Shown here piece after piece: positions 25,750-26,232 of a DNA stretch of 64,000 nt. The notes under the pieces were generated by a model. It did not search any database. It saw nothing but the letters and a program-made list of their open reading frames with translations, and was not told the origin of the DNA. Each line of letters starts with the position of its first letter. Position 1 is the stretch's first letter. Location: the sequence record PQ724394.1; one strand, 5' to 3'. A program made the translations under genes and the position numbers. Source of the DNA: a phage.

Positions 25750-26004
25750 TTATTTTAGGTCTTCTAGACGTTTCTTCATCTTAGAGCCATTCTTAGCAAT
25801 TTCGCCAGCGTCTGAACATAGAGCCAAAAGGGCTTTAACTTTAGTCTGGTCACCTTTAAAGGAACTCGGGTCAACAGAATCAGCAAGTTCTTTAATACGC
25901 GCGAACAAACGTTCGGCTTCAGCTAAAGCAGTACCAAGTTTTACTTCCATACCGTGTGAGGATTCGGTTAGAGGTTGCGCAGAAAATTCTTGATAAGTTT
26001 TCAT
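25750..26004 (-). CDS. internal-protein-like protein with capsid-targeting leader (84 aa)
   Basis: N-terminal MKTYQEFSAQ leader; ipI position downstream of 57B. Confidence 0.55.
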   Translation of the reverse strand: MKTYQEFSAQPLTESSHGMEVKLGTALAEAERLFARIKELADSVDPSSFKGDQTKVKALLALCSDAGEIAKNGSKMKKRLEDLK

Positions 26005-26022
26005 TTTGTTCCTTAGTTTAAA

Positions 26023-26232
26023 TTATTTTAGCCATGAAGAATTTTCAGAGACCCAGCTATCTATATCTGATTGAGGCCCAAAGAAGTAGGCAACCCCATT
26101 AGATAACTCTCCTGAAAGCCAATTTATACCTTTCAGGCTTTCTTTAAATTCTTCAGGAGTACAAGAAACCTCTATTGCCACCGAAGAGGCTGACTCCATT
26201 GCTTCTGTTAAGAATTCTTTGTATGATTTCAC
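26023..26232 (-). CDS. internal-protein-like protein with capsid-targeting leader (69 aa)
   Basis: N-terminal [11 protein letters not shown] leader; start overlaps the 57B stop. Confidence 0.5.

Follow-up and report, generated by a model that had tools for sequence, protein, structure and literature searches.

Two adjacent candidate internal head proteins at the ipI locus of a Dhakavirus: Ip5 and an unnamed protein encoded next to acb1

Two adjacent small open reading frames (ORFs) at the ipI locus of a T4-type coliphage each begin with a capsid-targeting leader, and in both of them the recognition motif of the prohead protease gp21 is located exactly at the leader/mature boundary. ORF1 is identified by its sequence as Ip5, a long-known protein and not a new one, and ORF2 is most aptly viewed as a new member of the internal-protein class that has no name so far. 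The sequence features make it very likely that both proteins are packaged and processed by gp21. For the role of both as anti-defence inhibitors, analogy with T4 tips the balance only modestly in favor. The reading as a whole, i.e. two T4-type internal head proteins that are injected and block a host nuclease, is regarded as probable, based on sequence and analogy together.

The analyzed stretch of 64 kb (in the following: the window) stems from a Dhakavirus, a JS98-like T4-type coliphage, and its closest match is phage Ec2-ASingh with 98.6% identity. The sequence-only reading had proposed both ORFs as candidate effectors. Its assignment to the internal-protein class is supported, while the novelty of the 84-aa ORF is not, as Ip5 is present in T2 and in hundreds of other genomes.

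Leaders, cleavage sites and the ipI locus

The gene order on the minus strand is gp3, gp1 (dNMP kinase), 57A, 57B, ORF2, ORF1 (Ip5), trna.4, trna.3, trna.2, and the tRNA cluster. ORF2 and ORF1 are thus located between 57B, which encodes Acb1, and trna.4, which is the position of ipI in T4. The coordinates of all features are summarized in Table 1. Two adjacent small leader-bearing ORFs had been predicted at exactly this place, and both were recovered on the minus strand. When the ORF starts of the window were searched with a regular expression for the capsid-targeting motif, four matches were obtained, versus none in 200 shuffled versions. Within the tRNA cluster region, ARAGORN called an unusually long tRNA-Phe of 97 nt with the anticodon AAA, which adjoins normal genes for tRNA-Arg, tRNA-Asn, and tRNA-Met and could be either an erroneous prediction or some other small RNA.

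Table 1. Features of the window discussed in the text
Feature	Position	Strand	Remarks
57B = Acb1, anti-CBASS nuclease	26229-26684	-	Pfam Acb1 at 6.8e-59
57B stop/ORF2 start overlap	26229-26232	-	GTGA
ORF2	26023-26232	-	69 aa, GTG start, unnamed internal-protein candidate
ORF2 leader	26203-26232	-	codons 1-10, followed by A
ORF2 predicted mature protein	26026-26202	-	codons 11-69, 59 residues, 6.4 kDa, pI 4.1, net charge -6
15-nt direct repeat CTAAAATAATTTAAA, copy 1	26017-26031	-	last two ORF2 codons, stop and 6 nt
ORF1 = Ip5	25750-26004	-	84 aa, ATG start, predicted internal head protein
Ip5 leader	25963-26004	-	codons 1-14, MKTYQEFSAQPLTE, followed by S
Ip5 predicted mature protein	25753-25962	-	codons 15-84, 7.5 kDa, pI 8.8
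15-nt direct repeat CTAAAATAATTTAAA, copy 2	25744-25758	-	end of Ip5
PeSL-type element	25703-25737	-	downstream of Ip5; early promoter GTTTACA-N16-TACTAT with embedded 10-bp stem-loop; drives trna.4
Nearest perfect late promoter	29662-29669	-	just upstream of gene 4
gp21 prohead protease	56412-57047	+	Pfam Peptidase_S77 at 1.1e-103
Third leader-bearing ORF	22864-23481	-	205 aa, pI 9.7
Perfect late promoter of the third ORF	23510-23517	-	directly upstream
Fourth leader-bearing ORF	13705-14064	-	119 aa, pI 9.5
Long tRNA-Phe call	24219-24315	-	97 nt, anticodon AAA
Early-promoter/PeSL motifs (examples)	3482-3510, 7921-7949, 14550-14578, 22776-22804, 25709-25737	-	GTTTAC-N15-18-TAYWAT

The leaders had been described as similar to MKTYQEFIAE, taken as the targeting sequence of T4 internal proteins. 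The similarity holds for both ORFs, but MKTYQEFIAE is not the leader of T4 IPI. The closest match to the leader of ORF2 is the common leader of IPII and IPIII, which we take to be MKTYQEFIAE, whereas the leader of T4 IPI comprises 19 residues (MKTFKEFTSTTTPVSTITE). The propeptides of IPII and IPIII are identical to each other (PMC9026906). The N-terminus of Ip5 reads MKTYQEFSAQPLTESSHG and begins with MKTYQEFSAQ.

Mutagenesis of the IPIII leader has revealed that residues 4 and 7 are mainly important for targeting, and residues 8 and 10 for processing (PMC9026906). The targeting-critical residues Y4 and F7 are retained in both ORF2 and Ip5. At the processing positions ORF2 has L8 and E10. Ip5 has a glutamine at position 10, but L12-T-E14 followed by S comes after it. 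The sequence-only reading stood or fell with a gp21-type cleavage site after the leader. The cleavage motif of gp21 is L/I-x-E, and it is present exactly at the boundary in both cases, as L8-T-E10↓A in ORF2 and as L12-T-E14↓S in Ip5 (the arrow denotes the predicted cleavage). In the homologs of Ip5 the leader varies in sequence and in length, from 10 to 15 residues, and (I/L)TE always directly precedes the invariant sequence SSHGMEVKLG. Similarly, the junction E↓AM(E/D) is kept in all relatives of ORF2, down to about 40-50% identity.

The phage encodes the cognate machinery itself. Apart from gp21, the window contains the genes for the scaffold protein gp22 (T4_CASP, 2.4e-90) and for gp67. The major capsid protein gp23 encoded in the window carries the sequence FLTE↓AEIG at residue 63, and its residues P4 to P1' are identical to those of ORF2 (FLTE↓A). 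Therefore, gp21 is the enzyme expected to cut off both leaders.

Ip5 and the unnamed ORF2 family

The mature parts of the two proteins had been called unrelated to each other and to T4 IPI, and indeed BLASTP similarity was confined to the leader. A profile and structure search of the mature domains had been suggested as a check, and it led to Ip5 for ORF1 and to Ip6 as the best named structural match for ORF2. Ip5 matches phrog_3499 ("internal head protein") at 4.4e-45, and still at 2.7e-39 after removal of the leader. Its UniRef relatives, with E-values of 1e-32 to 1e-37, include "Ip5 internal head protein" of T2 and "Ip5" of RB70, and the relative in phage GiZh is named "ipV"; the Ip numbering used here rests on such UniRef and GenBank names. 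The name Ip5 is said to go back to the survey of T-even polymorphism by Repoila and colleagues from 1994. The mature part is 94% identical to a gene found in about 266 phage records, mostly of T2-like coliphages. In comparison to T2 the dN/dS ratio is 0.06, and the changes are mostly at third codon positions. The AF2 model of Ip5 is a two-helix hairpin (pLDDT 75), and a Foldseek search of it against the PDB retrieved only generic helical hairpins, all with E > 0.1.

Ip5 of the T-even phages and the protein described here share 82-87% identity over the full length (86-91% in a MAFFT alignment) and the mature N-terminus SSHGMEVKLG. In T2 the gene is at the same locus, directly after 57B. The leaders are different, MKTFKEFATKTTITE in T2 versus MKTYQEFSAQPLTE here, and the gene described here resides in a Dhakavirus, is the second in an array, and has no upstream PeSL promoter of its own. 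The exact Ip5 sequence was absent from a collection of 15 billion proteins, and this leader variant was found nowhere else. A paralog of Ip5 with 55% identity and its own leader, MKTYSEFLSE, is located beside the lysozyme gene e in vB_Eco_NR1 (1938-2219 of the locus) and in about 220 other records. The mature domain of Ip5 is thus found at either of the two Ip loci, depending on the phage.

In contrast to the well-known Ip5, every named database member of the ORF2 family is called "hypothetical" or "uncharacterized". ORF2 matches phrog_23867 ("unknown function") at 1.8e-42, and Pfam and NCBIfam contain no family for either ORF2 or Ip5. The family is small. Only 29 of 50,697 phage records hold ORF2, namely those of Dhakavirus, Moonvirus (Merlin, CF1), EcS1, and Erwinia phage Gravdalen. 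It forms five clusters at 90% identity among 5.8 billion proteins and is found at six loci in IMG/VR. When 1.84 billion representatives clustered at 50% identity were searched by HMMER with a profile of ORF2, only four more small relatives with a leader were added. Three matches of the profile to large proteins were set aside, one as a repeat-protein artefact (P0014) and two as weak, multi-stretch matches.

ORF2 is not annotated in JS98, JS10, IME08, dhaeg, dhabil, MN04, and UP19. Together with its GTG start, the empty GenBank records of JS98, JS10, IME08, and UP19 might suggest that it is a chance open frame and no gene at all. However, the frame is uninterrupted in each of the 29 phage records with ORF2 as well as in the metagenomic relatives, and the start codon is ATG in WG01, Esco_phi_B-01, EcS1, Gravdalen, CF1, and Merlin. 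Substitutions are mostly at third codon positions, with dN/dS values of 0.09-0.15, and the sequence comparison thus indicates that ORF2 is under purifying selection. In addition, a Shine-Dalgarno sequence (GAGGA) is present 6 nt upstream of the GTG, and the fold is predicted with confidence. The conservation pattern effectively refutes the reading as a chance frame. The missing annotation points to a systematic gap, in which a gene with a GTG start has been skipped in several reference genomes. ORF2 is probably an unnamed internal protein.

The AF2 model of ORF2 (pLDDT 83) consists of a helical leader followed by a small domain with a beta-alpha-beta-beta-alpha fold. Foldseek against the PDB yielded only generic small alpha/beta domains, all with E > 0.1, and a sequence search of all PDB chains with ORF2 and Ip5 retrieved nothing below E = 0.05. 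Apart from the relatives of ORF2 itself, the best named match to the model was Ip6 of VR7 (Foldseek against BFVD, E = 1.8e-3, TM about 0.70), a protein that is also present in T6 and related phages. ORF2 and Ip6 share the motif GP..I(D/E).W before the last helix. With hhalign the probability was 85% including the leaders and 59% over 40 columns without them, at an identity of only 21-26%. Ip6 is near-neutral or basic, in contrast to the acidic ORF2. It is therefore possible that ORF2 is a distant relative of Ip6. The idea that the acidic mature ORF2 (pI 4.1) is a DNA mimic was dropped, because acidity varies in the family, with pI values from 4.1 to 7.0 and net charges from -6 to 0.

Linkage to acb1, cassette exchange and expression

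Eleven genomic contexts of ORF2 were examined, and in ten of them the start of the gene and the stop of 57B/acb1 overlap by 4 nt. CF1 is the exception: here, a further Ip gene is inserted between acb1 and ORF2 and overlaps with both. In the T4-type genera covered outside of Tequatrovirus, which were Dhakavirus, Moonvirus, Kagamiyamavirus, and Winklervirus, as well as in two metagenomic relatives, a gene of the ORF2 family directly follows acb1. The overlap (GTGA or ATGA) recurs across five genera of T4-type phages. This arrangement suggests translational coupling, and it also suggests that the anti-CBASS enzyme and the candidate injected protein form a conserved, translationally coupled pair.

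The same overlaps could alternatively mean that ORF2 mainly acts as a partner of Acb1 in the cytoplasm early in infection, being co-translated and not packaged, and that its leader is a by-product of recombination at the locus. The lack of a nearby late promoter fits this idea, and so does the timing of acb1, which must act early, as we infer from its anti-CBASS role. It is nevertheless improbable. A leader and an E↓AM junction that are kept down to about 40-50% identity are hard to square with a relic, and the cleavage site of ORF2 equals the maturation site of the phage's own gp23. Moreover, an early promoter does not preclude packaging, as exemplified by T4 ipI. Upstream of ipI only an early PeSL promoter is present, and yet about 360 copies of IPI are packaged per head (PMC9026906). 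Therefore, the missing late promoter is no objection to the packaging of ORF2 and Ip5, which remains the preferred reading.

A perfect late promoter, TATAAATA, was found directly upstream of neither ORF2 nor Ip5; the nearest one on this strand is, by its position, just upstream of gene 4. Late-promoter sites with one mismatch were no more common than expected by chance. No terminator was predicted between the promoter upstream of gene 4 and the two ORFs in the stretch scanned, which extended up to position 28000, and read-through late transcription of ORF2 and Ip5 is thus conceivable. Scans of the region for sigma-70 promoters and terminators were at background level with the exception of the PeSL element.

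The PeSL consensus of T4 and PST is TTTACW-N17-TAYWAT (Comeau et al., 2014, PMC4122927). The element downstream of Ip5 fits it, with a spacer of 16 nt instead of 17 and with an embedded hairpin (-15.4 kcal/mol, z = -5.2). PeSL elements are thought to mediate the modular shuffling of cassettes (Arbiol et al., 2010, PMC2839356; PMC4122927). The same element separates Ip cassettes in UP19, WG01, JS98, T2, and T4, and in the relatives examined most cassettes are parted by an early promoter with hairpin, GTTTACA-N16/17-GATACTAT, while some abut or overlap. The motif GTTTAC-N15-18-TAYWAT, of the T4 early promoter or PeSL type, occurs 13 times in the window, always on the minus strand, versus 0.28 occurrences expected by chance, and 11 of the 13 are located in the first 26 kb.

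Between ORF2 and Ip5 no PeSL element is present. The junction is instead marked by a 15-nt direct repeat, and its two copies bracket a unit of 273 bp that consists of a Shine-Dalgarno sequence and Ip5. The ATG of Ip5 follows 18 nt after the stop codon of ORF2, behind AGGA. The sequence after Ip5 in this phage is found after ORF2 in JS98, and the ORF2-Ip5 junction is present in only two of the 50,697 phage records. The simplest reading of these sequences is that the 273-bp unit was inserted between ORF2 and its PeSL element by recombination at the 15-nt microhomology. As a side observation, ORF2, Ip5, Ip9, and T4 57B (near 3450-3460 of the T4 locus) have the same ending, L-K-stop and then TTT, which corresponds to (C/T)TAAAATAATTT. 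A 3' end that unrelated cassettes have in common could provide microhomology for recombination in addition to PeSL.

The content of the locus is highly variable. Relatives within Dhakavirus carry two to four different leader-bearing ORFs at the ipI locus, and VR7 carries more, namely five, two of them with divergent leaders. JS98 has ORF2 and a 97-aa ORF, and UP19 has ORF2, an Ip8-like ORF, and Ip9. WG01 has the same three as UP19 and additionally Ip7, and Esco_phi_B-01 combines ORF2 with Ip5 and an Ip8-like ORF. The occurrence at this locus of diverse proteins with nothing but the leader in common has been known since 1994. Firm functional support for this concept followed in 2025, and the internal-protein reading is supported but not new.

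Proposed function and further leader-bearing ORFs

The mechanism that we propose follows the T4 internal proteins. The N-terminal capsid-targeting sequence would bind each protein to the scaffolding core of the prohead, and gp21 would cut after the leader-terminal L-T-E, i.e. after residue 10 in ORF2 and residue 14 in Ip5. The mature proteins of about 6.4 and 7.5 kDa would remain in the DNA-filled head and enter the host together with the genome. By analogy with T4 Ip1, Ip2, and Ip3, they would then bind and block a first-line nuclease of the host, probably a modification-dependent type IV restriction enzyme. The genes would represent interchangeable cassettes of a hypervariable locus, which are shuffled at the common leader-coding sequence, at the 3' ends, and at the PeSL elements.

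T4 IPI (Ip1) serves as the functional model for both ORF2 and Ip5. It is similar in its locus between 57B and trna.4, the kind of leader, the protease motif, and the size of the mature proteins (59-76 residues). It differs in that no BLASTP similarity to ORF2 or Ip5 is found past the leader and that the structure of IPI* is not among the PDB fold matches, so that these searches gave no indication of homology of the mature parts. Ip2 and Ip3 of T4 exemplify unrelated mature domains behind one leader, each of which blocks one nuclease subtype. Their genes, however, reside at the second Ip locus, which is in the vicinity of gene e, and the mature domains are unrelated and of larger size.

The sequence-only reading had called the two proteins candidate injected anti-defence effectors. 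By analogy, this is the expected reading, as Ip1, Ip2, and Ip3 of T4 are all injected inhibitors of distinct GmrSD enzymes (PMC12373910). Ip1 inhibits the GmrSD type IV restriction enzyme of E. coli CT596 (PMC12373910), and Ip2 and Ip3 inhibit the highly diverged GmrSD enzymes of ECOR21 and ECOR17, without cross-protection (Silas et al., 2025, PMC12373910). According to a proposal of the same authors, every gene at the two Ip loci is directed against variants of the GmrSD family (Silas et al., 2025, PMC12373910). Leaderless IPIII is functional from the host cytoplasm (Srikant et al., 2022, PMC9391042). With ip4-10, no reproducible inhibition was obtained against 15 GmrSD groups (PMC12373910). 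By its name, ip5 should be included in this set, and the target of Ip5 may therefore not be a GmrSD enzyme, or it may be one from outside the panel of 15 groups. ORF2 has no Ip number and was thus probably not part of the ip4-10 panel. To our knowledge, a target is known for only three of more than ten internal proteins.

The result for ip4-10 is also compatible with another view, namely, that the two proteins are packaged and processed but have a structural or physical role, e.g. in head assembly, DNA condensation, or ejection, and do not inhibit any defence. IPIII mutants show aberrations of head assembly, internal proteins have long been thought to interact with DNA (PMC9026906), and mature Ip5 is mildly basic. 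A purely structural role seems unlikely, as each of the three internal proteins of T4 has a specific anti-restriction target (PMC12373910). In addition, the acidity of mature ORF2 argues against DNA binding, and the swapping of non-homologous cassettes between close relatives at a hypervariable locus fits an arms race better than a structural need. The inhibition of a host nuclease thus remains the favored function.

Dhakavirus genomes carry the hmC pathway, and Dhakavirus is a predicted maker of hmC, but it is not listed with those groups for which glycosyltransferase genes are known. Therefore, the relevant host enzymes may differ from those that are specific for glucosyl-hmC. On this background, a bolder and rather doubtful view of ORF2 can be put forward, namely, that it founds an unrecognized family of internal proteins that is injected and would neutralize a defence outside of the GmrSD subtypes of Ip1-3. 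An enzyme that attacks non-glucosylated hmC DNA could, with the same reserve, be an example of such a target. If this view were true, acb1 and ORF2 would constitute an anti-defence module of two genes whose products act at two separate times during infection. Irrespective of this, the ORF2 family is a cheap and well-defined candidate for anti-defence screens, since it is tightly linked to acb1 and may be absent from the published ip panels. Injected proteins act before phage gene expression, and they thus help to decide whether a therapeutic T4-like phage can establish itself in a wild strain.

Two further leader-bearing ORFs were observed in the window. The third, which is located outside of the ipI locus, encodes a protein that begins with MKTYNEFLNE↓S and is immediately preceded by a perfect T4 late promoter (TATAAATA). 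It belongs to phrog_2280 ("unknown function") and occurs in 139 phage records; all of those listed either call it "hypothetical" or leave it without annotation. Its sequence indicates that it is likely another unrecognized internal protein, of the size of IPIII. The fourth begins with MKTYQEFITE↓S and belongs to phrog_3966 ("unknown function"), and its position probably corresponds to the second Ip locus of the phage.
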